A DNA stretch of 53,385 nucleotides, the filler included, from Basidioascus undulatus (taxonomy: Eukaryota), in NCBI GenBank assembly GCA_000826855.1. It is 3 parts of 3 records of this genome, joined end to end, with 100 filler letters (N's around TTAATTAATTAA, not from the genome) between each part and the next. Parts side by side here need not be neighbours in the genome. Positions count along the whole stretch, not along the records: positions 35,691 to 53,385 come from JTLS01000510.1; 2 more parts are not named here. One strand, given 5' to 3'. The stretch's first letter is position 1; every line of letters starts with the position of its first letter. The notes under the pieces were generated by a model. It was not told the origin of the DNA and searched no databases. It saw only the letters and a program-made list of their open reading frames with translations. The translations under genes were made by a program, and so were the position numbers. This document shows positions 4,757-53,385 of the stretch, in pieces.

Positions 4757-4828
4757 AGCAACAGCCCGGGATCGAACCGGGGACTTCCAGATTTGCAATC
4801 TGACACTCTACCACTAAGTTACTGCTGC
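4757..4828 (-). tRNA. tRNA-Cys (GCA), intronless
   Basis: Reverse complement GCAGCAG TA ACTT AGTGGTA GAGT G TCAGA TTGCAAA TCTGG AAGTC CCCGG TTCGATC CCGGG CTGTTGC T: all four stems pair, U73 discriminator, T5 run immediately downstream. Confidence 0.93.
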
Positions 4829-6363
4829 TGTGCTTACTACTCAATAGTAACATTAATTCAGATTGTATAAACCTACCTTCAAAGAAGTGAACATTTTAAG
4901 GCTTGTTGAGACTGCTGTAGCCCGGCATCAGTGAGGTACCCAGAATTTACCATATAATTAAACCCTAACCAACCGTCCCGACGGCCGAGCTTGATCTCAC
5001 CACAGCCTGCAATGCACGTTTGACCCTGCCGCACCGCCTCATAACTGACATGACTGCGAAACATATTGTGAATAACGAAAGATAATCATTCACATTTCGG
5101 CTGAGCCTCCTACGAGGAAGCATGGGTGCCCACTCGATGTTCAATGTTCTTGCCGGAGGGCCTGGCAGGCCGGGGCAGCTCAGAGTCTTGAGGTCAAGCT
5201 AGCCGACATGCCCACTTATACGGATTTTGAACAAAAGGGTTCACAGAACAGGAAGTCTAAAACTGAAGAGATGAGTGATTCAGCAACGCACCGTAGTCGC
5301 CGTCTTGCCGATGCACATTGCACAGCGTCCGCTCCCGCCACCTCATCCACAAATGCCTTCAGGCTTGATGTCCTTCACCAATACAAAACACGATCAAGAC
5401 GCCGTGAAACTTGGGGACGAATATATACCAGCGGCATTGTCCGCCCGCGACTCTGCATCCGCTTGTTCTAGGAAGACGAGGCGAGGCGAAGCAGAGATGA
5501 ATTATATCCTGAACTTCTTCAACATGCTGTTCCGTATCTCTGAGCGACATCCTTCCTTTGGATGGTTAGCTTGGCAACTCCGTACAACGAGCGGGTACTT
5601 TCAAAGCAGGCGAGACTACAAGCTTGGAGTCGTGCTCAAAACTGTCTATCGGTAATGGCTCCTACTCTGTGCGTCAGTCTACGAAACATTCTGAAGATTA
5701 TGTGATGTTTTGGAGCCATTGGTCTTCTAGAATCAAATATGTGCACCCTCAAACTCCTGTTGAAACGGTGCTGCCTGCGGAGTGAGAAGACGCTGTGCGT
5801 GCCGGCTCTCATCCACATGAAGCCGGTAGACTGTCCCGGCGGTATTCGTATGACAATCGGTCGTGCTACCTCTGGCACAAGGGAATAAGCAGTGACTCGG
5901 AAGAGAACGTCAGGGGTAGTCTAACGCCTTCGAGCGCTCAATCGACGTGTTTATCAGCACTGCTCGCGCACTTTGGAGGACCTCCTGTTGCATGCCTGGC
6001 ACAGCTCAGACTGAGCTCACTGATATGGCGTGCTCGCCGGCCGTGACAGGCGACGATCATGATTTCTGGTCCGATGCGAAGGAAACTCGAAGCGAAAGTT
6101 GAGAGTTACAAGCTGAAACGATCGCGAGGTGACGCAGCCGAGACTCACGTGCAACGTACAGCCTGGAAGCCAGCCCCTCATGAGCGTTCGTGGCTTATCG
6201 CAGCCATGCCTGGCGTGCTGCTCGCCCCCGACTGCAATCTCTCTTCTTTCCCCTCTTGATCCCCAACGGCTACGATCCCCCAGAACATACCCCTTTCCAC
6301 GCCTCGTCATCCCTAGATTCAGCACCCAGATCAACGACTTCATCGCCTAGAGCGACGCCCGCG

Positions 6364-9300
6364 ATGCGTCTTCTTACTTCGGCCGCCCTCATCGGCCTCC
6401 CCGCCACCGCGCTCGCCCTTTCCGCCTCCGGGTCCTCCAGCCAGCGCAAGACGCTCGCCTGGGGCACCGGCGCGCGCTCCAAGTTCTCCACGTCCCCAAT
6501 CGCCAACTCGTACTTCACCACCGCCGACCTCGGCAAGAAGAGCCCCGTCGACATCGCGTTCGCGTTCGCACGCAGCCTCACGGCCCACGACGTCCGCGTG
6601 CGCGACGACGCGTACACAGACGACCACACCGGCGTGACGCATGTGTACATCCGCCAGCTCGTCAAGGGCATGGAGGTTTGGGACGGGGACTTCAACGTCA
6701 ACGTCGATAAGGATGGGAACGTTATCAGCTGGGGCAGCTCGGTGAGTCACGCGACCATCAGTGCGTTGAGTTTGATGAGGCAGCGGGCTGAAGGCATTTG
6801 CCAGTTCTACGATGGCCCTGAACCTATCGATCTTTTGGACGAAGGCGTCCACGAGCGCTGCTCCGACCTTCGCGAGTCGCTCGCCCGGCACATCACGCCC
6901 TCCCACAACTCGGAGGCGCAGATGGTCTTCGGCGCGACCTCCTCCGAGCGCCTCGCCGCCCTCCAGCACTCGGTCCTCCTCTACTGCCCGCATCGCCAGA
7001 CGGACGCGTTCCTCCTCTCATCCCTCCCCGCGCACCAGCAGCCGCTCCTGCAGCACGCGCGCTCGCTCAACCTCCCGCCTACAGCAGACCTCCACCCCGC
7101 GTCCGTCGCGGCGCTCTCGCTCGTGGCGCTCACGACGACGGACGAATCCCTCTCGCAGGCTCTGTATGACGACCTCCCGTCCCACCTCGACGGAGTGACG
7201 TCCTCGTTCGAAACCCACCTCCACTCGGACGGGACCGAGACGGTCGTCGAGACGCTGCACGGCGTACCGGACACGATCGGGCCCGTCAAGGCCTCTGTTG
7301 GCTGGAGCCAGCGCCAGCTCGAGGACGGCAAGACCGAGCTCGTCCCCGTCTGGAAGCTCGAGATGCCGATGAAGCTCAACTCGTACGAGGCGACCATGCC
7401 CGCTGCGAACCCGAAGCTGCCGCTCTCGATCGTCGACTGGGTCGCGGACTCACCCGTGCCTAAGCCGTCGCCGCCAGCTGCGGTTGACCCCCTGTACAAG
7501 GTTTATAAATGGGGTGTGAACGGTGCGTCGTCCATGCTTTCCCTGTACTGAGCGCTGCGAGCTGACCAGTTTCCGGGGCGATAGACCCGAGCGTTGGCCA
7601 CGTACGCATTTCCTTGATCTTGCTCGCCAATACGTATAACCTAATCTTTGCCTATCCCTTCTACAGCGCCTGAGCCTTCACTCGCCGCACGATCACCACG
7701 CGTCTCCGCTCGGCTGGCACTCCATCCCTGCTGGGACCCGCCTGCCCTTCTCCGACGTCCAGGCTAAGGGCGGGTCCACCAACTTCACCGACAGTACGTC
7801 GACTCACATTCTCTCTCCGTAATATATTCATTGTCTGACTTATTGACATTGATTTCAGCTCGGGGCAACAACGTGTTCGCGCACGAGAACTGGCAGGGCG
7901 CCGACAACTGGTTCGTTTCTCCTCCCCTGGCAGTCAGTTCTTTTCAAACATGCAGGGCTAACTCAGCGGGCGGGCAGGATTTCGAACTACCGCCCGAACG
8001 CCGGTCCCTCGCTCAACTTCTCGTACCACCTCGGCATCAAGCACATTGACGGCCAGGAGCTCTCCCCGCGTACGTACATCAACGCGTCCATCACCGAGCT
8101 CTTCTTCACCTGCAACCTTGTGCGTCCTTCGCAATCTTTCCAGCGCAAATGTCCGATAGCTCACGGATATTGTACATACACAGATCCACGACCTCTACGC
8201 CCGCTACGGCTTCGACGAGAAGGCTGGCAACTTCCAGGAGAACAACTTCGGCCGTGGCGGCAAGGGCGGCGACGCGGTCGTTGCGAACGCGCAGGACGGC
8301 TCGGGCTACAAGTGAGCTTTCTCATCCGTTTTGTTTCCACTTGAGGGGAGGTCTGCTAATGCGCTTTGACCGCCATCAGCAACGCCAACTTCATGACGCC
8401 GCCCGACGGTCAGCGCCCGCGCATGCGCATGTACGTCTGGGACACCGCGAAGCCGTGGAGGGACGGCGATCTCGAGGCTGGTATTGTCATTCATGAGTAC
8501 GTCTGTGGCATGCAGTTGCTTGTCTTGCGCGAGGAGATGCTGATCGCATTTCGTTGCGCTGCAGGTACACGCACGGCCTTTCGACCCGTCTTACTGGCGG
8601 TCCGGCGAACTCTGGCTGCCTTGGCTGGGGCGAGGCTGGCGGCATGGTGCGTCACATCCTCTGCTTGCGTTTCTTCGGAAGGATCACTTGCTTATCTTCG
8701 ACGCTGTGCCAGGGTGAGGGCTGGGGTGACGCACTGGCGACCATCATCCGGAGCAAGAAGAAGTACCATGACTAGTCAGTCACCGAGCGTCCTTAGCACA
8801 TCCGGCATTGGGACTGACCTGTGTGGGTTGACTCTCAGCGCTATGGGATCTTGGGCCGCGAACCGGGCCAACGGCATCCGTCACTACCCTTACTCGAGCA
8901 ACAGCACCATCGTGAATCGAATGATATGCAACCAGGTGAAAGCATCACTGACCCCGCGAACTGCCACAGAACCCGAGCGTCTACAAGACTCTCGACGGAC
9001 CTGGCTACTTCGGCGTCCACGCTATCGGCGAGGTCTGGGCTGAGATGCTGTTCGAGCTTGTCATCGGTGCGCTCCTTAACATTTTTGTCCGCATTCCCGT
9101 CATACTGATATGGGTGCTGTGATGACAGTCCTCGAGGCCAAGCACGGCTTCTCGACCACCCTCTTCCCGCCCGCCCCTCAGGCGGACGGCACATACGCTG
9201 CCGACGGCGAGGGCTTCTACCGCCCCATCGACCCGTCTGACGCCGAGGCCAAGTCGAAGCCGCGCGTGCCCATCCACGGCAACACGCTCGCTACGCAGCT

Positions 9301-19581: not shown

Positions 19582-20305
19582 ATGTCCGCCCCCGCTGTCA
19601 ACCCCAAGGCGTTTCCGCTCGGTGCGTCTTCCTTCCGGGCTTCCCCCCCCCTCTTCGCTTCCCTTTCCTACACCCTCGCCCTTCCTTTCCTCTTTTTGGA
19701 TCTATGGCAGACCTTGACTGACTCTTATTCGTTTGGGGGACGCGGGCGTTTACAGCCGACGCGACGCTCACGAACAAGGTGCGTCTCCTCCCGCTCTTCC
19801 TCACCCTCACCGCTCCTCCCGCTCATCCTCCTCAAATTCCCTACAGATCCTCGACCTTGTCCAGCAGGCGTCGCACTATTCTCAGCTTAAGAAGGGCGCC
19901 AACGAGGGTAAATACTCTTTATTTTACATTCCACGACGCGTCGGGACTGATGCGGGGGTGGGGCGGCGCGGCGCAGCGACCAAGACGCTCAACCGCGGCA
20001 TCTGCGAGTTCATCATCATGGCCGCCGACGTCGAGCCGATCGAGATCGTCCTCCACCTTCCGCTTCTCTGCGAGGACAAGGTGCGTTCCTTCCCTTTCCC
20101 CCTTCTTCCCAAGATACCCTCTGACATGTTTTGGACGTAACCCCAGAACGTCCCCTACATCTTCCTCCCCTCCAAGACCGCGCTCGGGCGCGCGTGCGGC
20201 GTCTCCCGCCCCGTCATCGCCGCCAGCGTGACGACCAACGAGGCCCGGGAGCTCACGTCGGTAATCCAGCAGATCAAGCTCGAGATCGAGCGCCTGCTCG
20301 TCTGA
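19582..20305 (+). CDS. SNU13: 13 kDa ribonucleoprotein-associated protein Snu13 (15.5K, L7Ae family)
   Basis: [128 protein letters not shown]; 4 introns. Confidence 0.97.
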
Positions 20306-21289: not shown

Positions 21290-24001
<2,712 letters not shown>

Positions 24002-35590: not shown

Positions 35591-35690
35591 NNNNNNNNNN
35601 NNNNNNNNNNNNNNNNNNNNNNNNNNNNNNNNNNTTAATTAATTAANNNNNNNNNNNNNNNNNNNNNNNNNNNNNNNNNNNNNNNNNNNN
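35591..35690. other. Artificial contig spacer (N44-TTAATTAATTAA-N44)
   Basis: Same linker as 17769-17868. Confidence 0.97.
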
Positions 35691-36654
35691 GAAGGGGGAG
35701 GAGGAGGAGGAGAAGGGGAGGGGTAAGGCGAGAAGGGGGAGGGTAAGGCGAGAAGGGGGAGGGGGGAACCGGAGACGGACAATGGCGAGACAGATCGCGA
35801 TGCCTACGACGAAGAGTTTGACGATCGAGTTGCGCCGGAGGTGCGCGCGGTCGGGGTGGTCGGACGCGAGCGCCCAGACTTCGAACGTCTGGCAGATGGC
35901 GGAGAGGGCGACGCCGACTGGACGGTATCACAAAAAAAGCGTGTGTGAGCCGGAGGCGGGGAAGCGACCGAGCGCAAAGGGAAGACGCACCGATGAACAC
36001 GAGCGTCATGCTCCAGTGGGCGGTCGCATAGTTGACATCGTCAAAGATCGCGAGGAGGATGAGCGCCGCGCCGCCGATGCAGCCAAAGATGATCGCCGCG
36101 ATGTCGCACGTGCGCTCGCGCGAGCGGACGGTGCCCGGGATGCGGTCGACGTGCCGCAGCCAGCGCTCGAGGAGGAGCGAGAGGATGTAGAAAAATATGG
36201 TTACGCAGTTGAGGACCTGTTTTCCAGTGCGGGGGTGCGGATGAGGGAGAGGTGGGTAAGGAGACGGAGAAGGGAAGAGGACGCACGATGAAGACGGTTT
36301 TGTTGTATGCGCCCACATCGGATACGAACACTATTCTAGCACCGCGCTTGGGGGGGGGGACAGAAGTAGGTGTCAGGCGTGCTGGAGGAAGTGGAAGCGG
36401 GTGTGGGAAAGAAGACGGCGACGCACATCGTATCTCGGGTGCCCGTCCGCCGCCCAGAGACCCAGCAGTGCAATGAGGTCGGCTATCCATACCCAGCTGT
36501 CGAATGCGTTCCGTTGTCAGCGCGGGGGGAGCAAGGGAGTTCGGTGAAGGAAGACGGACAAGGCGATAAGGGGCGCGTAGACTGCCCAGCCGTAGCGGAG
36601 GTGGGTCGCCCGTGGGGGTGTGGACTGGTTCGTAAGCGAGCGGAAGAGAGCCAT
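35691..36654 (-). CDS. Frag1/DRAM/Sfk1-family membrane protein; 3' end cut by contig edge
   Basis: WVWIADLIALLGLWAADGHPRY..IVFVSDVGA..NKTVFI..LSLLLERWLRHVDRIPG..DIAAIIFGCIGGAALILLAIFDDVNYATAHWSMTLVFIVGVALSAICQT..HLRRNSIVKL. Confidence 0.88.
35711..35760. repeat. 20-bp tandem repeat (~2.5 copies) in an intron
   Basis: AGAAGGGGGAGGGTAAGGCG repeated. Confidence 0.7.
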
Positions 36655-38390: not shown

Positions 38391-39403
38391 CGGCAGTCAG
38401 AGTGAAATACTGTTTGCTCGAGCGCAGTTGAGATCAATTTTACTGTACAGCTGAATACTAGATATTTCGTTTGGTTCACAAGTGTGCGAGTTTAGGCCAT
38501 TGATTGCTCTTGGGCGGCAGCCGCGCGACAGTCAGTGTGCGCTGAGGCGGTATTTGAGGGCAGCGTCTTCTGCGAAGGCGTCTCTTGACCATCTGCGGGG
38601 GGTTGATGTTCATTAATGGGGTTTACAGAACGTGCAGAAAAATTTTGGGCCCGAGTAGGTGTTCTAAAAGGCTGGTCGTGAGCTGATGAGCTGGACAGCC
38701 AGATATGTCTGTCAACCCACCGCAATCGTCTGCTTGCAGCTTACCGTGCTGGTGATTTCACTCTGCCAAGCTGTACAATTCCAGGACTTCGGGGAAGGCT
38801 CAGATTTAGGAAGCACTAAAGATTACGTTCTGGCAGATGTTATGAATTGCTCGAGAACCGCATGGTGCACGAGGCGACTGGGAGGCTTCGAAGTGGCCGC
38901 CTCCGTGCTTTATGAAGTGGGCACCTTAACAACCTGAGTCAGTATAATTTACCTTCTAATTTTAGACAGAGTTTTCCCCCATGCACGGGGGTCTGGAGAT
39001 TCAAGAGTACGGCAGTGTTCTTGTCGACTCGAAGACGCTGGCTCCCTCTCGCCGCTGCTCTCCACTATTACCGGCTGAACCAATCGGAATAACTAGAAAC
39101 ACCTCGATACCCTCCATTAATCCGGAATCAGCATTGGCATGATACTGAGAATGCATTCTTAGCCAGACAGCTTGAGGTCGGATTCATGGCACCCTTCCGC
39201 GGACGTCCTGTCGATAATCCCCGGAACGCTGGACTTTCACGCGCCTGCAGGCTCAACTTGTTCCCCTCACCTCGCTCGCCTTTTGGTCCCCATCAGCTCA
39301 CATTTGCTACCGAGGGGATTCTCATCGTTCAATTCACCGTCATAACCGGTCCTCGCTCCATCTCGTTCCCCTCCCCTCACCACCCCCACCCCCACCCTCC
39401 ACG

Positions 39404-40046
39404 ATGTCTGGCCGTCAAGGTGGCAAACTGAAGCCTCTCAAGGCGAGTCCCATGGTCCCAGCCACCCGAATGTGGGCGGACGAGCGGTAGACTGACCGAG
39501 CGTACTGGGGCTTTACGCTGTACAGTCGGCGAAGTCCCAGAAGAAGGATATGGACGAGGCGAGTCTTCCATCTTCCCGACTCCCTCAGTGGTTGACCAGC
39601 GACGCTTACGCCCGCTTCTTTGTCTTTATTTTAGGACGATCTCGCGTTCATCGCGAAGCAGAAGGCGGACGAGAAGGGGTGAGTTTCCGTAGCTTCAATC
39701 CATGGATAGTTGGGGCAGTAGCTGACGTCGATCTCGTGCCTTGCAGTAAGTGGGTAGCTGGCTGGACTCGCGACGACGCGCGGAGGGCGGAAGGTTGCAG
39801 TGGCTGACATTCTAACCCCTATTCTCCCGTACAGCCCGGAAGGAGGCGGCGGCGAAGGGTGCGTGGTCTTTCACATCCTCGAGACCAACTTTGCGGACGC
39901 GGGCGCTGACATTGTTCGCCTGGACTCAGCGGCGAAGGGCGGTGCGCCGGGAGGCGGCATCAAGAAGTGAGAGATCTATCTGTGGAGATGCCGCTGACGG
40001 GACGTATGTATTGATATGTTCTTCCTGCAGGTCGGGCAAGAAGTAG
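39404..40046 (+). CDS. TMA7: Translation machinery-associated protein 7 (63 aa)
   Basis: Exons 39404-39442, 39526-39558, 39635-39677, 39835-39858, 39930-39966 and 40031-40046 give [63 protein letters not shown]. Confidence 0.93.
39678..39834 (+). other. Predicted [D1,2] spliceosomal twin intron (stwintron)
   Basis: G[GTGAGT..GCTGAC..TTGCAG]TAAGT..GCTGAC..TACAG: removing the internal intron 39679-39746 creates the external donor GTAAGT. Confidence 0.8.
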
Positions 40047-40213
40047 ATGGGCAGCTTCGGGGCGCTGTGGGGGCGCTGGGCTACCTGCATTGCATGGATT
40101 GCTTATTTACGATCTCTGATCCGGGCTGCAACCGAGAGAGGGCATCTAGTCTTGTGCTACTGGCACACCATGCACACGGAAGCGGAGCAGCTAAAAACGC
40201 ATGAAGAACATCC

Positions 40214-43200
40214 CTAAATGCCTTCGATAACCGTCGCGCCAACCTTGAGCGTCTCCCTCGCCACCTCGACGCCCCACCTAACGAGCTCCGTCTCCGCCTC
40301 GCCGCCACCGAGCACCTCCGCGCCGGGGCCTTTGCGCATCGTGCCGGAGAGGAACCAGAGCAGGCCTTGCGTGAGCGCGGGCAGCGGCGCGGCCTTCATG
40401 AACACGCCCTCGATCGCCGGCCGATCCTGCCTCGCCTTGCTCCGCGACTTGAGCACGAGCGTCGGCGACGCGCTCTGCGTCGAGAGGAGCAGGTACGCGA
40501 AGAAGTAGGCGAAGAAGCGCTGCGAGGTTGGTTGGAGCGTGGGGAAGTTGACGGGCTGCGACGAAACGAGGTGAGCGATCACCCACAGCTGTTTGTTTGT
40601 GAAAAGACCGAAAACGCACCTTGAACACCGTCAGCGACAGACCGCCCTTGGCGACCCACCACGCCGCCGCGCGCGCGACGTTCCGCATCCGGCCCTCTTC
40701 CAGGCCCTTCCCGCCGCCGGCCGCCGCTGCCCCGCCGCCCTTGAGGAGCCCCGCGCCGCCGACGCTCGACTCGCCCATCTCGCGCATAAAGTCCCACAGG
40801 CAGTACTGCAGCGTGATGCGAGACGAGTGCGAGGTTTTAAGCAGGTGTGACGCCACGAGCGCGTAGAACGGGTTGTAGGTCTTCTCCTGCGGGCGGGCGG
40901 AGCAGTGTGAGCGGGGAGGAAGCCATGGGGTGGGGTAAGAAGCCAGAGGTAAGGGGAGACGCACGTTCCCGCAGCAGTGTAGAATCACGCGCATGATCTC
41001 CCGCTGCTGGATCTCCGAGAGTCCCATGCCGAGCAGGCGCTCGCACGCATCGATGTAGTCCTGCGCAGCGCACCCTTCATCAGCTCCTCGCCCCTATCCA
41101 CCCTCATGCATAAAGAGAAGCAGACGCACCTCGCTGCTCATCAAGACCACGAAGATGCTCCTGCGGATATCGGTGTTCATGCCCTGCCGGCGCGCAAGCC
41201 TGAGGAGCTCCGACTCCTCCGCCTTCGCAGCCTTGCTCGCGGCCGCCGCGTCCTTGGCCGTGTCGAGCAGCGGGTTCCCGCCCCACCCGGCACCGACGAT
41301 CCACCACCGGCCCTTGGACTCGGCGGAGCGCAGGTCGGCTAACGAGACGCGCAGGGGCTCGTGCGACATCACTGCGGTCGGGGCTAGCTGAGCTGGATGG
41401 GGATGAGATAGGAAGAGAGATGCACGGACCAGTCCGTTTTTTGGAGAGACCTGATAGATACTTCTTCATCCGCGTGCGCGTCTCCTCACCGCCCGTCCCG
41501 CCAGGAAGCGCCTTGAGCCGGTTGTTCTTCAGGTTCGTGAGCGTCTCAAGCATGAACCTCGTGCGGCTCCTGCCAACTCATATTTCAACATCAGCAATCA
41601 CATTCCAGCGAACAAAGGTTGGTAAGAGGTTCAGCAGACGCACGATACGCGAGCAGCGTCCTGCGACTCCGTCTGCTTTTGCACGGCGAGCACGATGTCC
41701 TTGAGCGCGGTCGGGTCGTCCGACCTGAGCTGCTGTCCGGCACCTATTCACCCCCTCGCTAAACCATCAGCACTCATAAAAACACGCCCAGTCCCCCGGA
41801 AGACACAACGCACTCCGCAAGATGCGCATGAGCCCCTCCACCTCCACCTCCGCCATCCCGCGCTCGCGCTCGCCCTCCGCGCCGATGAGCGCGCGCACGA
41901 GGTCGTACACGAGCAGGCACGACACCACGCCGAGGTTGTACAGCTCCGCGAGGAGCGAGAGGAGGTTCAGGGACTCTTTCCCGCCCTCGTTCTCTTCCGA
42001 GGTGGAAGAGAGAGGGCGCGAGTCGAATTGCTGGATGAGGGTCTGGACGAAGTGCGCGGCTGCGAGAGGGGTGAGGTGTGAGCGGGTGGTGAAGGGGAGA
42101 GAGGGAGGGGGCAAGCGCACCAAACTCGATACCGATTATGCGGTGGAGGGCGGAGACAAGACCGGCGTAGAGGATGGTGAAGGAGTCGAGCATGTTTGCA
42201 CGCGTGGAGAGCGTGGACAGGACGAGGCGCGAGATGGTGGTGGTGACATCTGCGGTAGGCGTCAGAGTGCGGTCCGCCCATCACAAGTACAGCCTGCGAA
42301 GCGGACGCACCGTGCCGAGGATGCGAGCGGTACAGCGCCTCGAGGCCAGTGAGGATGGAGTCGATGTTGGCTTCGCTCAGCCTGCAATCCAAAGTCAGTG
42401 TTACTCCTGTGAGAGGATAGGCACCCTGCGAATGACTTCAGTGCCGCACCTATTCAGCAGACCCTTCGCTGCCTTCTCCAGCCGAGCCAGATCCTCTGCG
42501 CGTTCAGGTGTCTCCTGTGGAGCAGCGGACGCCGACGCCGATGAAGCGGCGGCGGCGGCGGCGGCGCGTCGCATTGCGGGGGGGACGTACTTGGCGGGTG
42601 CGGAGGGTTGAGCTGGAATGCGCACTGTGGGTCAGGCTTCTCGCAGGGAGATGAAACAGTTTTTCGAAAAGGGAAGACGTACCAGGTGCAGCAGGAGTCG
42701 AAGCGTCCGCCAGCGCTTCAGTCGAATCTGGTGCGCCAGCGTCTTCGTCGTCGGACTCCTCCTCGTCGCTGATGCCCCCCCACTCACCGCCGAGGTCGGC
42801 ATCCGCGTCCTCGTCGCTGCCCGGCTCGCTCTCCTCCTCATCCTCTTGGTCTTCATCGCCTTCGCTCTCGCCCTCGCTCCCCTCCTCATCCTCGCTCTCG
42901 CCACCCTCGCTCGGCTCGCTCTCGCTCTCCCCGACGTCCGTAACGATGTGGTCCAGGTGGTCGAGCAGGTCTGTCGCCGCACCGCATTCCACCCCCTTCC
43001 TGCATCAGACACGCCTCCCGCACATTCCCCAGAGCAATCCAAGACGCACCGTCCAAACCGTCGTCCTCCCCATCCTTCTTCTCCCCTCTGAGCTTGTACT
43101 CCAACCAAGCGATCTCATCATCCTCCGGGTCGCCCATGCGTCTCCTCTTTCTCGCCTTAGACGGCTTCTCCATCTCCGCCGCAAGCTTCTCGAGCGCGGT

Positions 43201-43679: not shown

Positions 43680-44020
43680 AGTAGTGAGGAAATAAAGTGG
43701 ATAGTTTTGGGGGAGAGTTTGTGCGTTGGTGGAAGACCCGAAGGCAAGAAGCCGACGAGAAGGGGCTCGCGAAGTTTCGTGGGAAAAGCGTGGCGAGCAC
43801 CTTGCCTGTTATCTGTCACCTGTCAAGTGGCAAATGCTGTTGCGGCATTGCTTCAGTGTGAGCGAGCTGGGATTACATTAACCTTCGTCTTCTGGATGTG
43901 AGGGTCATATGTAGGCATGCTGTTTCTTGAAAGTTACCTGAGAAAGGGCAGAATTAGTGCGTGAACCCTGCAGAGCATCATGACAGTCGTCCGAGAGGAT
44001 CGCGAGCGTCTTCTTTCGTC

Positions 44021-47000
44021 ATGCCATCATCGTCCTTTCACTGTGCCCTGCGGCTTCCAGTCGCCCATACCGCACGACGAGCAACCTGCCCACGTTTCCA
44101 GTCTCTCAGATCTCTTCCATCAACACGCCCATCAACCTCTCACACGACAAGGGCGATCTCGACTTCAACGAGGATGGCGTCGACGCAAGCTGCCCCCGGC
44201 GTACCGCCCGGCGCACGCAACCGCCTCGCAAAGGCCAAGTCGCCTTATCTTTTGCAGCATGCTTCGAATCCGTGAGTTCATATGTCGTGGATGAGTCCGG
44301 AGACCCTGCGGCTGAAGGTGTGGGTCGAAGGGTCGACTGGTACGAGTGGGGCCAGGAGGCCTTCGATGCCGCGAAGGAGCGGGATGTTCCCATCTTTCTT
44401 TCAATCGGTTATTCTGCGTGCCACTGGTGCCACTCAATGGCGTCCGCGATTTATCTATAAATTGCAGGTAGTCAATCGCTCACACAATCCACGGCGTCGT
44501 ACAGTCATGAGTCGTTCGAGAACCCGGCCATCGCCCAAATCATGAACGAGAACTACGTGAACATCAAAGTGCGTCATTCTCCTCATTCACATTTCACAGA
44601 TATTCTGACAGAGAAAGACAACGCACAGGTCGACCGTGAGGAGCGGCCGGACGTCGACAGCCTGTATATGCTCTTTCAGCGTACGCACCGTTGCAACAGC
44701 CTGTTTGACACCGTACTGATTTTACATTTCATTTTTCTAGAGGCTACGAGCGGACGTGGCGGATGGCCTCTTTCTGTCTGTAAGTAGTTCGTCGAAGCCA
44801 GCTCAGACTTCGGTAGGGTTGAAAAACTCCCCGAAGTCCTCACCCCCGAGCTTCATCCCTTCTTCTCCGGGACGTACTGGCCCCCGCGCGGCTCGCTCGG
44901 GCGCCCCGGTTTCCCAGACGTCCTGCAGCGCATCGCGCAAGTCTGGCGAGAGGACCCCTCGAAGGTCCGGGAGTCGGGCGCCAGCGTGATTGCGCAGCTG
45001 GCCAAGCTCTCATCCGTCTGTCCCATTTGCCTCCCTTTCTCTCTTCCGCTGCTTTAAGAAACTTTCTCATTATTGTGTGATATTATAGAGCTCCGCCAGC
45101 TCCTCCACCCCCGCCGACGTCGACCCGCCCATCAGCGCGTCCAAGATCTACGCGCACCTCTCGCAGCGCTTCGACCCACGCCACGGGGGGTTCTCCACCG
45201 CGCCCAAGTTCCCCTCGCCCTCGCAGACCCTGCGTTTCTTAAGCCGGTACGCAGCGTACCTCGCCAGCGAGAAGACAGCCGGGAAGGTCCTTCCCCCGGG
45301 CCCGGCTGGTGCGGCCGAGCGCAAGGAGAGCAGCGCGAGGATGGGGCTGAAGACGCTGAAGGGGATGTGGGAAGGGTGAGTGAGCGGGGTAGGAGGGATG
45401 TGGAGGGGAAACTGATGGGATATGCGGGGGGGTAGCGGCATACATGATTGGGTTGGGAATGGATTCTCGAGGTACTCGGTCGACGAGAGGGTGAGTTTCC
45501 AGCCATCTACATCCCAGTACTGACACTTTGCTCATCCGGACACACTGTCGGGGCAGTGGCACCTTCCCCACTGTAAGTCTTATTTACACCAGACCGCAGA
45601 ACCGCTAACGCAGACGCTGCCCCGGAACAGTCGAGTAAGTATTCAGCGCTGCCCTCGCCCCTTCCAACACTTATAACAACAAGCGCTGACAATCCCTCAG
45701 AAAAATGCTGTATGACGAAGCGCAGCTCATCTCGTCCGCGCTCGAGCTCGCGCTGCTCCCGCCCAACGTCGGCCTGCTCAACGCCGAGCGTGAGCTCCTC
45801 TTCGACTTCGCGGCGGACATCATCCGCTACAGCACGCGGGACATGGCGAACCCTATGGGCGGTTTCTTTTCCGCTGGTAGTGTTCGAATGCTCTTCTCCC
45901 TCATGCCCGACGTTGCTCATGTGGTGCGCTTTGCAGAGGACGCTGACAGCTTTGAGAAGTACGGCGACACGCACCCGAAAGAGGTTGGTCCACGTTCGAG
46001 ACTAGTTCAGAGCGGAAGGGCTAACATTGGGGATGTGACAGGGCGCATTCTACGTCTGGACCGCTCAGGAAATCGACGATGTACTAGCCCCGCTCGAGAA
46101 GGCCGAAGGCGTCGGCAAAGGCCCGCTCACCCCGGCGGACGTGTTCAAGCACCAGTTCGGTGTGAAGCCGGACGGGAACGTCGATCCGCAGTATGACATC
46201 CAGGGCGAGCTTGTCGGAAAGGTAAGGTAATGTCTTATGCTGTGCGGTTGCTTGAATAGAACGCTAATACAGTCTCATCCGGCAGAATGTTCTGTATCTC
46301 GCCTCACACTCGGACGAGACGGCCCTCGCAACCGGGCGGAGCGTCGAGGAGGTGGACAAGATCGTCTCCGAGGGTCTCAAGATGCTCAAAGACTACCGCG
46401 ACACGAAGCGCCCGCGGCCGCACCTGGACGACAAGATCGTCACTGCTTGGCAAGGACTCATGGTGCGTTGCATTAATTCGGTCTGAGCAAGACGCAAGCT
46501 CATGTCTTGACCGTCTTTACGTAGATTTCCGCGCTCTCCACCGCCTTCACGGCCTTGCCGAAGCGGTACGAGACGCTGGCAGCTCAGGCGCTGTCGCTCG
46601 CCGAGTCGAGCGCGCTGTTCGTCAAAGCCAATGTGTACAACAAGGAGACGGGCGAGCTTAGGCGCAGCTGGAGGGAGGGCCGTGGGCCGTGAGTATTTCC
46701 AAGTTCCATCGCTGTTTACCCGAACGCTGAAACAGGCTTGCTACAGGGTCGGACAAGCGGACGACTATGCTTTCCTCATTGACGTGCGTAACACCAGGCG
46801 GATTGATAGAGAAAGACGTCTCATCTCTTTGCTAACAGGGCCTCATTAACCTCTACCAAGCCACCGGGAAGGAGGAGTACGTCACTTGGGCGATCGACCT
46901 TCAAGCGAAGCAGGACGAGATCTTTTACGACCATGAAAACGGCGGCGTGAGCTTTTGAAACTTTCCGAGAAGCATCTTCGACGCGTACTGACAGTGAATT

Positions 47001-48099: not shown

Positions 48100-49274
48100 A
48101 CTTACACCAGCCCTATCGTCGCAGACTCATTTTAGAATCAATACTGCATCGAGACGGTCGAGGTTGGTGTGACCCCCGAGGTCGGCGAGCTGTACGACAG
48201 CCCCTGCCGGCCCATCTACAACTACGCCATCATTTCGCCGCTCTCCTGCGGCATTTTCGACTTCAAATCGTCTTCAATCAAAGGCTTCTGAGTCGACTCT
48301 GTCACGGAGGAAGTCTGCGTCGTGCTCTACTCAAAGGCGACCTCCCGCCTCATGGTCTGCCGTCGCCCCTGGATGATGCACGTCTTCCCTCCGCTGGCGA
48401 AGTAAACGCAATGTGTTCCATCTCGTCCGGGAGCCCTCTTGGGCACGTCGAAATAGTCTTCCTCTACCGCGCCAAGCAAGGCGACGACTATACTCGCTCC
48501 GCTGCATCCAGCATCCCATGGATCCCACGCAACAAAAAAACAAAAAAATTGCTCTTCAGGTGAGACTTGAACTCACAACCTCCCGATTAACAGTCGGACG
48601 CGCTAACCAATTGCGCCACCGAAGATTGCGGCCTTTAGTCCCCTGAATATATTGCTAATCATTGTCCATTTGTAGTCCAATGTCCGAGCTGTTGGGCAGT
48701 AATATCGGGGGCGCAATGCTCAATCCGCTCTCCCTCTCGAAGCTTCGGGAGCTCAGCTGGAACCACACTAAGAAGCAATCAGCTGGTGGGGTGTCTATCA
48801 GGTTTTGCGCCGGGCTTCTCTCCCAGCGTTGCAGAGGATCAACATCGGCAGCACCTGGTCCGACGGACACGCTCTGAATGAGATTCTGGGACGTTTCGGA
48901 GCAAACCCTCGCCATCTCTCCATCCAAACGTTCGGAGACATCTCTGGAGTCACGCTCACTGACTGTCCTCGCCTCCGGTACCTTCATCTTGGCAAGCGAC
49001 AACTCAGTCGGGGCAGTCCCGTTTTTGAGTTGGCACGCCCGTATCTCAGAATTCTTTGCATTAGTTTCAAGCGAGCTTGCAGGGACGTCAAAATCTCGAT
49101 GTGTTTTTCAAGAACCTGTCTCCGTCGCGAACACCCCATCTTTTTCGGATTGAGCTCTTCATAGATGAGCGGGCGGAATGCTGGACACCAGAGACTCTGA
49201 CGTGGTACAGCGAGATGGAGGGGTTGCTCGATGGAAAGGGTGTCGAGTTGTATTGTAAACATGCCCTTTCATGA
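48100..49274 (+). pseudogene. Decayed LRR/RNI-like (F-box-type) gene remnant
   Basis: LRR-like fragments in shifting frames: LSKLRELSW, LPALQRINIG, LTDCPRLRYLHLG, PYLRILCI, ending MEGLLDGKGVELY. Boundaries approximate. Confidence 0.45.
48552..48625 (-). tRNA. tRNA-Asn (GTT), intronless
   Basis: Reverse complement TCTTCGG TG GCGC AATTGGTTA GCGC G TCCGA CTGTTAA TCGGG AGGTT GTGAG TTCAAGT CTCAC CTGAAGA G: full cloverleaf, G73, T7 terminator downstream. Confidence 0.95.
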
Positions 49275-51853: not shown

Positions 51854-53385
51854 ATGCCGCCCACGACTCGATCACGAACCCGAGCGAGGGCACGGCGCCC
51901 GACGCTGCTCGGCGCTATGGGCGCGCTGGCACTTGCGCTAGCGGTCGCGGCGGATGGGGAGGAGAAGCTGGCTCGGTGCGTGTGCTGGCGGGGACGAGGC
52001 GGAAGGAAAGGGAGGAAGACGCTGAGTGTGTGTTGGAGGGTCGCTCGCAGCTGGCAGCATTCGTGGACCGCCCTCCCGCCGGACTCTGATACGCCCACAC
52101 ACCTCCTCGTCTACGGCGGCAAGACGTCCCCCTCGCCCGGCTCAGCAGGGCAGACCTCAGTCCGTGCCTCCCTCCCAGTGCTCCAGTCCCCGGCTTCCCC
52201 TCCCCTTCCCACCCCCTCCTTCTCGCCCCCCAGTCGTCCGCCCCCAACTCCGCCGACCTCCTTCTCCTGCCCCTCTCCGCCTCTTTCCCGCTCTCCTCGC
52301 CCCCCTGGAGCGTCCTCTCCCCCTCCCCCGCCGGGCCCCCAACATCCGACCACGCCCTAATCCCGCTCTCCCCGGACGGTGGATCCTCCTTCCTCCTCTT
52401 CGGCGGCCAGTCCTCCTCGGGCGTCCCCACCGGCTCCGACTCCGCGTGGGTGCTCAACCTGGAGAAGGATACCTGGGCGCTCTGGGCCGGCGAGGGGGAC
52501 GAACCGCAGCGGCGTGTCGGGGCGCGCGGGGCGTGGTGGGAGGGCGAGGCGGTCGTTGTGGGCGGGGAGAGGGGACACCAAAGCGGGTTTGATTTCACGT
52601 CCTCAATCTCCTACTCCCCTTCCTCCAAGCGCTTCTCCACCTCCATCCCCGCGCTCCCCGCCGCCCTCTCCGGCCACTCCCTCAACTACCTCCCTGGCTC
52701 CCCCCCGGCGCTCCTCACCCTCTTCGGTGGGTCCACCACACCGTATCTCCTCCGGCCCTCCGCGCGCGCGTGGTTTGCGCTCAATATCACGAGCGGCACC
52801 GGCCCCGCCGCGCGCACGGACCACCTCGCGCTCGCCCTGGGCGGTGGGAAGGTGTTTGTCCACGGCGGGAGGAGCGGGCAGGAAGTGTTTGGGGACGCGT
52901 GGGTGTTGAGCGTTGATGTGGAGCGCGGGGAGGGGAGCTGGGAACGCTAGGAGAAGTGGGAGGGGGCGGGAGCACCGGGGAAGAGGTGGGGCCATGGGGG
53001 GGTCGTGGTGGATGGGAAGATCTTGATCGTGTTTGGTGCGTGGCGGTCTGCCTTCACCTCTAATTTCAGGTACTCATGAACAGCGCGGAATGGTGCAGGC
53101 TACGCCGATAACGGACCAGCAGAGACGACGCTCTTCTCGTACGACCTCGCGTCCTCCTCGTTCCTCACGTCCTTCGCCGCGCCCTCCCCTTCCTCCTCCA
53201 GCGCCGGCTCCGGCTCCGGCAGCAAATCGGGTTCCAGCTCGGGTTCCAGCTCTGGCTCCGGCTCGAACTCTGTCTCTGGCTCCTCTTCTGACGACTCGTC
53301 GTCTCCCTCCGACTCCAACTCGGGTTCCTCTTCCTCCGGCTCCTCTGGTTCCTCTTCTGACGACTCGTCGTCTCCCTCCTCCACC
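51854..53385 (+). CDS. Secreted/cell-surface kelch-repeat (galactose oxidase-like beta-propeller) protein; contains an in-frame TAG and is truncated at window end
   Basis: Hydrophobic N-terminus LLGAMGALALALAVAA; kelch motifs ARWQH..LLVYGGK, FLLFGG, ARTDH..VFVHGG..FGDAWVL, RWGHGGVVVDGKILIVFGY; Ser/Gly-rich stalk; TAG at 52948-52950. Confidence 0.8.
53281..53379 (+). repeat. 30-bp direct repeat in the Ser-rich stalk
   Basis: TCCTCTTCTGACGACTCGTCGTCTCCCTCC at 53281-53310 and 53350-53379. Confidence 0.85.

Follow-up and report, generated by a model that had tools for sequence, protein, structure and literature searches.

The window, by which we mean the whole 53,385-nt stretch of DNA analyzed, carries at 39404-40046 on its plus strand a six-exon gene with a coding sequence of 192 nt and five intervening sequences. 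Exon 1 (39404..39442) runs from the start codon to codon 13, and 39406-39440 of it is present in an exon-only contig from a public sequencing run (X3, described below). Intron 1 (39443..39525; 83 nt) and intron 2 (39559..39634; 76 nt) flank exon 2 (39526..39558), and both are phase 0 with GC..AG ends and the donor GCGAGT; joints in the X3 contig skip 83 and 76 nt here, and at the first of them, which has an ambiguity of 2, GC..AG is the sole near-canonical register. Exon 3 (39635..39677), placed by the reading frame, the X3 contig and a protein profile, ends one base into an Ala codon and is followed by a phase 1 intervening sequence of 157 nt (39678..39834) that begins with GG and ends with AG; it corresponds both to an X3 joint and to a match of a published search formula. 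Downstream lie exon 4 (39835..39858), intron 4 (39859..39929; 71 nt, GT..AG, phase 1), exon 5 (39930..39966), intron 5 (39967..40030; 64 nt, GT..AG, phase 2) and the coding part of exon 6 including the stop codon (40031..40046), beyond which the X3 contig extends to 40112. Frame and contig place exons 2, 4 and 5, and for introns 4 and 5 the profile concurs.

We identified the gene by comparison with relatives assembled for this analysis. The exon 1 piece matched the Pfam family TMA7 (PF09072) with an E of 0.01 and 17 bits, under the cut-off of 27, and no candidate came out of a protein search with 40 residues from around exon 1. A degenerate N-terminal peptide pattern scanned over metagenome contigs yielded 17 loci, and a TMA7 profile was built from an alignment of the 12 that have uninterrupted frames of 64-67 codons; when six of these intronless loci were tested against Pfam, all six were PF09072 (E 4.6e-27 to 1.7e-17). 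With the 157 nt at 39678-39834 spliced out, the window gene has an open frame of 63 codons and a stop, and its product scores 77.0 bits against the 12-locus profile over profile positions 1-64. In contrast, the product of a 156-nt removal scores 51.1 bits, that with the internal intron (see below) alone removed 57.6 bits, and that with the whole 157-nt unit retained 55.9 bits, and each of these matches the profile in its N-terminal part only. Since the match runs from end to end, we take the gene at 39404-40046 to be a TMA7 homologue, with a frame that needs exactly 157 nt out, as an earlier note on this DNA had read from the sequence.

The 157-nt unit contains the signals of two introns, one placed within the donor of the other. 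Exon 3 ends with G39677, and G39678 follows it in a run of four Gs at 39676-39679. G39678, which must be removed to keep the frame, is the first base (39678..39678) of a split donor belonging to the external intron. Directly behind it lies an internal intron (39679..39746; 68 nt) with the donor GTGAGT, a branch element GCTGAC at 39721-39726 whose branch A lies 21 nt from the 3' end, and the acceptor CAG (within TTGCAG). The rest of the external intron (39747..39834) starts with TAAGT, has two branch candidates (GCTGAC at 39803-39808 and TCTAAC at 39811-39816), and ends in the acceptor CAG (within TACAG); counting G39678, the external intron is 89 nt long. Both nested units have a canonical donor, branch element and acceptor in normal spacing, and the base directly 3' of the whole is C39835. 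Moreover, G39746 of the internal acceptor together with TAAGT makes a second complete donor in the primary transcript.

Removal of 156 nt from GT to AG leaves a G in the exon and shifts the frame; excision of the internal unit alone gives a premature TGA; excision of the downstream 89 nt alone, or of nothing, leads to an immediate stop. On these points our re-reading and translations bear out the earlier note, which had listed the coordinates and signals of the nested intron without error and had held that one-step GT-AG splicing leaves an extra G and a frameshift, that removal of the internal intron joins G to TAAGT to create the donor GTAAGT, that removal of this intron alone exposes a premature TGA, and that an acceptor-side [A2,3] route is blocked by the C at 39835.

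Three public runs contain the region (X1, X2 and X3), none of them on record as RNA, and we mapped their assembled contigs on 39300-40150. X1 (word depth 44) and X2 (word depth 16.8) each yielded one genomic contig across 39406-40150 with no other letters and no gaps, and both read GGGG at 39676-39679. They come from two studies (2014, 2025), of which at most one is independent of the window, since X1 or X2 may be its own source. X3, which was made from the same sample as X1, yielded instead a 324-nt contig at a depth of 268.7 that consists of exons only: it matches all six exons with no other letters and skips 83, 76, 157, 71 and 64 nt between them. At the third joint the two sides meet directly, and a one-base ambiguity allows removal of 39677-39833 (GG..CA) or 39678-39834 (GG..AG), and nothing else. 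For X3 the record offers no more than a guess at the library type ('DNA?'). None of the five introns is covered by this run, which contains 0.37 of the words of an 8-kb stretch and amounts to 15.7 million letters; we read X3 as transcript-derived because of this exon-only cover, and its size and word share fit a transcriptome.

The X3 contig discriminates among the ways in which this stretch could be spliced. Removal of 156 nt from GT to AG is excluded, as it would give a letter string different from that of the contig. Microexon readings, as well as an acceptor shifted by one base, are rejected since the contig has no intervening letters and only the one-base ambiguity. The contigs bear out three further points of the earlier note: the DNA has GGGG rather than GGG at 39676-39679 in the contigs of both X1 and X2; microexons fail, with exon 3 and exon 4 abutting in X3; and the mature junction that it predicted is used, the 157 nt being absent from the X3 contig to within one ambiguous letter. 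As far as contigs can show, neither of the two outcomes that the note had given as refuting it was seen.

We then asked how readily such a layout arises by chance, using the formula published for finding [D1,2] stwintrons (Search Model A, as set out in the portion of PMC9024468 available) on both strands of the window. It gave one match, exactly 39678-39834, and none elsewhere on either strand, compared to a mean of 0.05 matches in 60 simulated windows; this sole match agrees with the [D1,2] architecture that the earlier note had assigned. A looser and a stricter pattern of our own also matched only 39678-39834, with expectations of 0.23 and 0.02, respectively. In a dinucleotide-preserving shuffle of the 113-nt interior, with both ends of the 157-nt unit held fixed, 189 of 50000 shuffles (0.38%) retained a valid set of internal branch element, acceptor and donor remainder. 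Since Search Model A has an expectation of 0.05 and only 0.38% of shuffles remain nested, the nested signals are more than chance.

By every criterion testable here, the element is a [D1,2] stwintron, and its mature junction is seen in a transcript-like contig. Specifically, the external donor is split between its nucleotides 1 and 2 by an internal U2 intron (5'-G/GU...AG/U....); each of the two introns has a canonical donor, branch element and acceptor at distances that fall in the ranges of Search Model A; the joint in the X3 contig lacks the whole 157 nt including the leading G (GG..AG being one of the two registers); and single-step GT-AG excision leaves a G and shifts the frame, with the loss in profile score given above. 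We conclude with considerable confidence that 39678-39834 is a [D1,2] spliceosomal twin intron (stwintron) at the third intron position of TMA7.

From the substrate in DNA and the mature junction, both of which are observed, we infer two steps of splicing, their order and both branch points. In the first step, the 68-nt U2-type internal intron (39679-39746) would be excised by means of its own donor, branch element and acceptor; we place it first because it is transcribed first and has complete signals of its own. Its removal would join G39678 to the TAAGT at 39747, producing the consensus donor GTAAGT preceded by AAGG. In the second step, the 89-nt external intron would be excised to the acceptor at 39834, so that G39677 is joined to C39835 and the Ala codon is restored. 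As judged from the sequence, excision of 68 nt and then 89 nt would be the sole pair of canonical U2-type GT-AG excisions that gives the X3 junction, and the order would be forced because removal of the 89-nt unit from 39746 first leaves no acceptor, 39835 being C. The layout would have a cost, in that a frameshifted message would result if the GT at 39679 were spliced straight to 39834; the reading of that message meets no stop before 40202, which is past the contig end at 40112. No function has to be assumed for the nested layout itself, which is most probably a neutral curiosity in the evolution of introns. The single finding that bears on the speculation of the earlier note about a regulatory or NMD switch is the premature TGA of the predicted intermediate.

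We considered that the 157 nt might instead be removed at once by one-step GG-AG splicing, with the GTGAGT at 39679 recognized and the cut made one base upstream, in which case the internal acceptor and TAAGT are there by chance and have no role in splicing. The mature junction in the X3 contig fits this explanation equally well, and a non-canonical 'GG-AG' class is listed in a manually curated annotation of the basidiomycete Ganoderma lingzhi, with 20 of about 92,000 splice-site pairs (PMC11590231 Table 1, from the part of that paper available). However, on this view the nested signals would have come together by coincidence, for which the chance is about 0.4%, and a cut between 39677 and 39678 would put a G at intron position 2. 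U2-type splicing needs G and U as the first two intron bases for catalysis. Moreover, the curated GG-AG cases may themselves be unrecognized stwintrons, nesting not being discussed in the available part of PMC11590231. We consider one-step GG-AG splicing unlikely; if it were true, 5' cleavage would be separable from the GU dinucleotide in this fungal lineage, and the 'GG-AG' class of PMC11590231, as that excerpt presents it, would be a real catalytic variant.

An artefact in the letters themselves could also mimic a stwintron, either because the genome is truly GGG with an ordinary 156-nt GT-AG intron, the fourth G being an assembly error, or because the X3 contig has lost a G. A homopolymer does sit at the critical place, and X1 or X2 is possibly the assembly data of the window. 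Nevertheless, the two DNA runs, from one study of 2014 and one of 2025, both have GGGG, free of gaps and with word depths of 16.8 and 44, the X3 contig has a depth of 268.7 and shares its sample with X1, and a run of four Gs is short for a systematic error; furthermore, such an error would have to land by chance next to a complete nested intron. Thus, we judge an artefact very unlikely. It is scarcely credible that a retrogene (a processed DNA copy) or a paralogue, rather than splicing of the TMA7 locus, gave rise to the exon-only contig: X3 is indeed of a kind only guessed ('DNA?'), but it matches all six exons with no other letters, its lack of intron cover and its 0.37 share of the 8-kb words are transcriptome-like, and a joined (intronless) contig, without which a DNA retrocopy is not its source, was found on this stretch neither in X1 (34.3 million letters, same sample) nor in X2, both searched whole.

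The [D1,2] stwintron in TMA7 thus preferred resembles published examples in its essentials. Stwintrons of the [D1,2] type, as defined in the accessible text of PMC12403724 and PMC7138796, are known in Hypoxylaceae and Xylariaceae, within Pezizomycotina (excerpts of PMC9024468 and PMC12403724). Like these, the TMA7 element is composed of a 5'-G, a complete U2 intron, the five remaining donor letters, a branch element and an acceptor, and it fits Search Model A. One-step excision of a [D1,2] stwintron leaves the first G in the exon and shifts the frame, according to the part of PMC8469720 available, and one-step excision in TMA7 has the same outcome. The TMA7 stwintron is unique in sequence, like the 'uniquely occurring' class described, in the text accessible, for Hypoxylaceae and Xylariaceae. 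In contrast to the proliferating 'sister stwintron' kind of Hypoxylaceae, it lacks terminal inverted repeats, an unusual fold and sister copies in the window. Specifically, the RNA fold of the 157 nt is nothing unusual (z +1.1, with an equally good or better fold in 174 of 200 shuffles), no terminal inverted repeats or inverted-repeat fold were seen in the unit, and a search for a second copy within the window found none, with best other matches of 12 nt. Since it has no inverted-repeat fold and no copy elsewhere in the window, we do not assign it to the 'sister' kind. Rfam gave no match at the TMA7 locus.

Several features set the TMA7 stwintron apart from those of Hypoxylaceae and Xylariaceae. 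The gaps from branch motif to acceptor motif are 17 and 15 nt, compared to a mode of 6-7 nt in the PMC9024468 set, as far as the available text of that paper goes. In the same set, as excerpted, the splicing intermediate is shown by reads and RT-PCR, whereas the TMA7 case is known from sequence and the mature contig. Furthermore, its host appears far more intron-dense than the Hypoxylaceae and Xylariaceae hosts. An origin of the nest by tandem duplication was tried and rejected: the similarity between the internal and external introns was reached by 81 of 1000 shuffles, and the two are no more alike than the other introns of the gene.

Comparison with other complex introns bears upon the route of splicing. 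The stwintron of a DHA1 antiporter gene is described, in the part of PMC5587772 available, as having a one-G overlap of two possible introns, and G39746 of the internal acceptor with TAAGT creates the same one-G overlap in TMA7. Of the two routes of the DHA1 case, the acceptor-side one is closed in TMA7 because the base after the stwintron is C rather than G, and the donor-side route alone gives the junction seen in X3. The [D4,5] and related complex introns of Lipomyces were called the first stwintron outside Pezizomycotina (accessible text of PMC7138796). These likewise have nested U2 introns that disrupt a donor, but the split differs ([D4,5] rather than [D1,2]), as does the gene (reticulon-like rather than TMA7), and the Lipomyces host is still within Ascomycota. 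In the recursive (zero-length-exon) splicing of Drosophila and vertebrates, a first splice regenerates at the junction a 5' splice site that is used again; the donor that is regenerated there is located entirely downstream of the junction, the introns are of great length, and their removal in one step leads to the same mRNA. In contrast, the TMA7 donor borrows one base from upstream, its units measure 68 and 89 nt, and removal in one step produces a frameshifted mRNA.

We found no report of a stwintron in Basidiomycota in the literature searched, nor any report there of recursive splicing or of TMA7 introns in basidiomycetes; the cases described in that literature are all from Ascomycota. Within the texts available, Basidiomycota are named solely for the absence of the stwintron under study (PMC5639578) or of the gene (PMC6616335), and the accessible portion of the review PMC7385547 places stwintrons in species from several ascomycete orders. 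This search agrees with the earlier note, according to which stwintrons are reported mainly from ascomycetes and none is known for TMA7 in a basidiomycete. The TMA7 stwintron is probably the first case outside Ascomycota. If the host is a basidiomycete, stwintrons extend across Dikarya; if it is an ascomycete, the TMA7 stwintron is one more case. Stwintrons serve as models of intron origin, of one-base shift and of loss, and a short conserved gene such as TMA7 makes the junction unambiguous from the reading frame.

There are also consequences for annotation. Gene predictors do not recognize [D1,2] stwintrons, according to the available part of PMC9024468, and for this reason the TMA7 gene is likely to be mis-annotated. 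Likewise, curated annotations of basidiomycetes list GG-AG introns, 20 of them in Ganoderma lingzhi, that may be unrecognized [D1,2] stwintrons. In that curated annotation, as the excerpt of PMC11590231 reports it, the 20 'GG-AG' splice-site pairs stand beside 1.85% GC-AG. Since GC-AG makes up so small a fraction of introns there, the occurrence of two GC-AG introns within one 192-nt coding sequence is unusual. The two in TMA7 (39443-39525 and 39559-39634) have identical donors, and both of their joints are present in the exon-only contig. Upstream of them, the leader right before the TMA7 start codon (39365-39403) is a C-rich, pyrimidine-rich tract, and 39300-39405 was masked as repeat-like in the contig mapping.

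To place the stwintron among relatives, we compared intron positions in the 5 of the 17 metagenome TMA7 loci that have introns (L001, L002, L006, L011 and L016), after checking their gene models against the profile (70.8-100.7 bits). At profile position 39, the codon of the stwintron, all five are uninterrupted. Only L011 among them is intron-dense, with four GT-AG introns of 76, 65, 59 and 55 nt, and it has the positions of window introns 1, 4 and 5: its intron 2 corresponds to window intron 4, its intron 4 to window intron 5, and its intron at the position of window intron 1 has a GT donor, compared to GC in the window. The stwintron position is empty in L011 by the profile alignment, and the position of window intron 2 is also occupied in L001 and L016. 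Thus, in this small sample of five intron-bearing loci, the stwintron position looks lineage-specific. At L006 (positions 1-183 of the oriented locus, a metagenome contig with a GC of 0.68), the TMA7 homologue needs the removal of a 24-nt GT..AG stretch for the conserved frame, which is very short for a spliceosomal intron, and its product is without the usual C-terminal motif.

The window as a whole shows signs of a very intron-dense fungus, in that the TMA7 coding sequence has five intervening sequences in 192 nt, domains fall into short exon pieces, and intron-like motifs are in excess. The window contains 45 strict motifs of this kind (median length 66 nt), compared to an expectation of 12.3. 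Pfam domains fall into pieces of 25-67 profile positions, and in the L7Ae-family, aminoacyl-tRNA synthetase, Frag1/DRAM/Sfk1-family, DUF255 and Kelch-repeat genes given below each match covers just 25-130 profile positions per open frame, which suggests dense introns.

Other genes are visible in the window in such pieces. TMA7 faces a convergent gene with MIF4G and MA3 domain pieces (40278-42135, minus strand), the final long open frame of which stops near 40278, at a distance of about 170 nt from the TMA7 contig end at 40112. A fungalysin-type metalloprotease gene (6184-9040, plus strand) has its FTP propeptide and M36 peptidase pieces split by introns, and two protein searches with the fungalysin-like open frame gave one distant match each, one from a chytrid and one from Calcarisporiella. 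Pfam also identified exon pieces of an L7Ae-family protein (19718-20137, plus strand), a class II aminoacyl-tRNA synthetase (21418-21804, minus strand), a Frag1/DRAM/Sfk1-family protein (35638-36330, minus strand), a DUF255 thioredoxin-like protein (43984-44784, plus strand) and a Kelch-repeat protein (52090-52947, plus strand). The Kelch open frame has an identity of at most about 43% to representative proteins among the best 150 matches listed. Neither these protein searches nor the taxon searches pointed to a relative within Dikarya. Two tRNA genes (4757-4828 and 48552-48625, both on the minus strand) are the sole Rfam matches at gathering score in the window.
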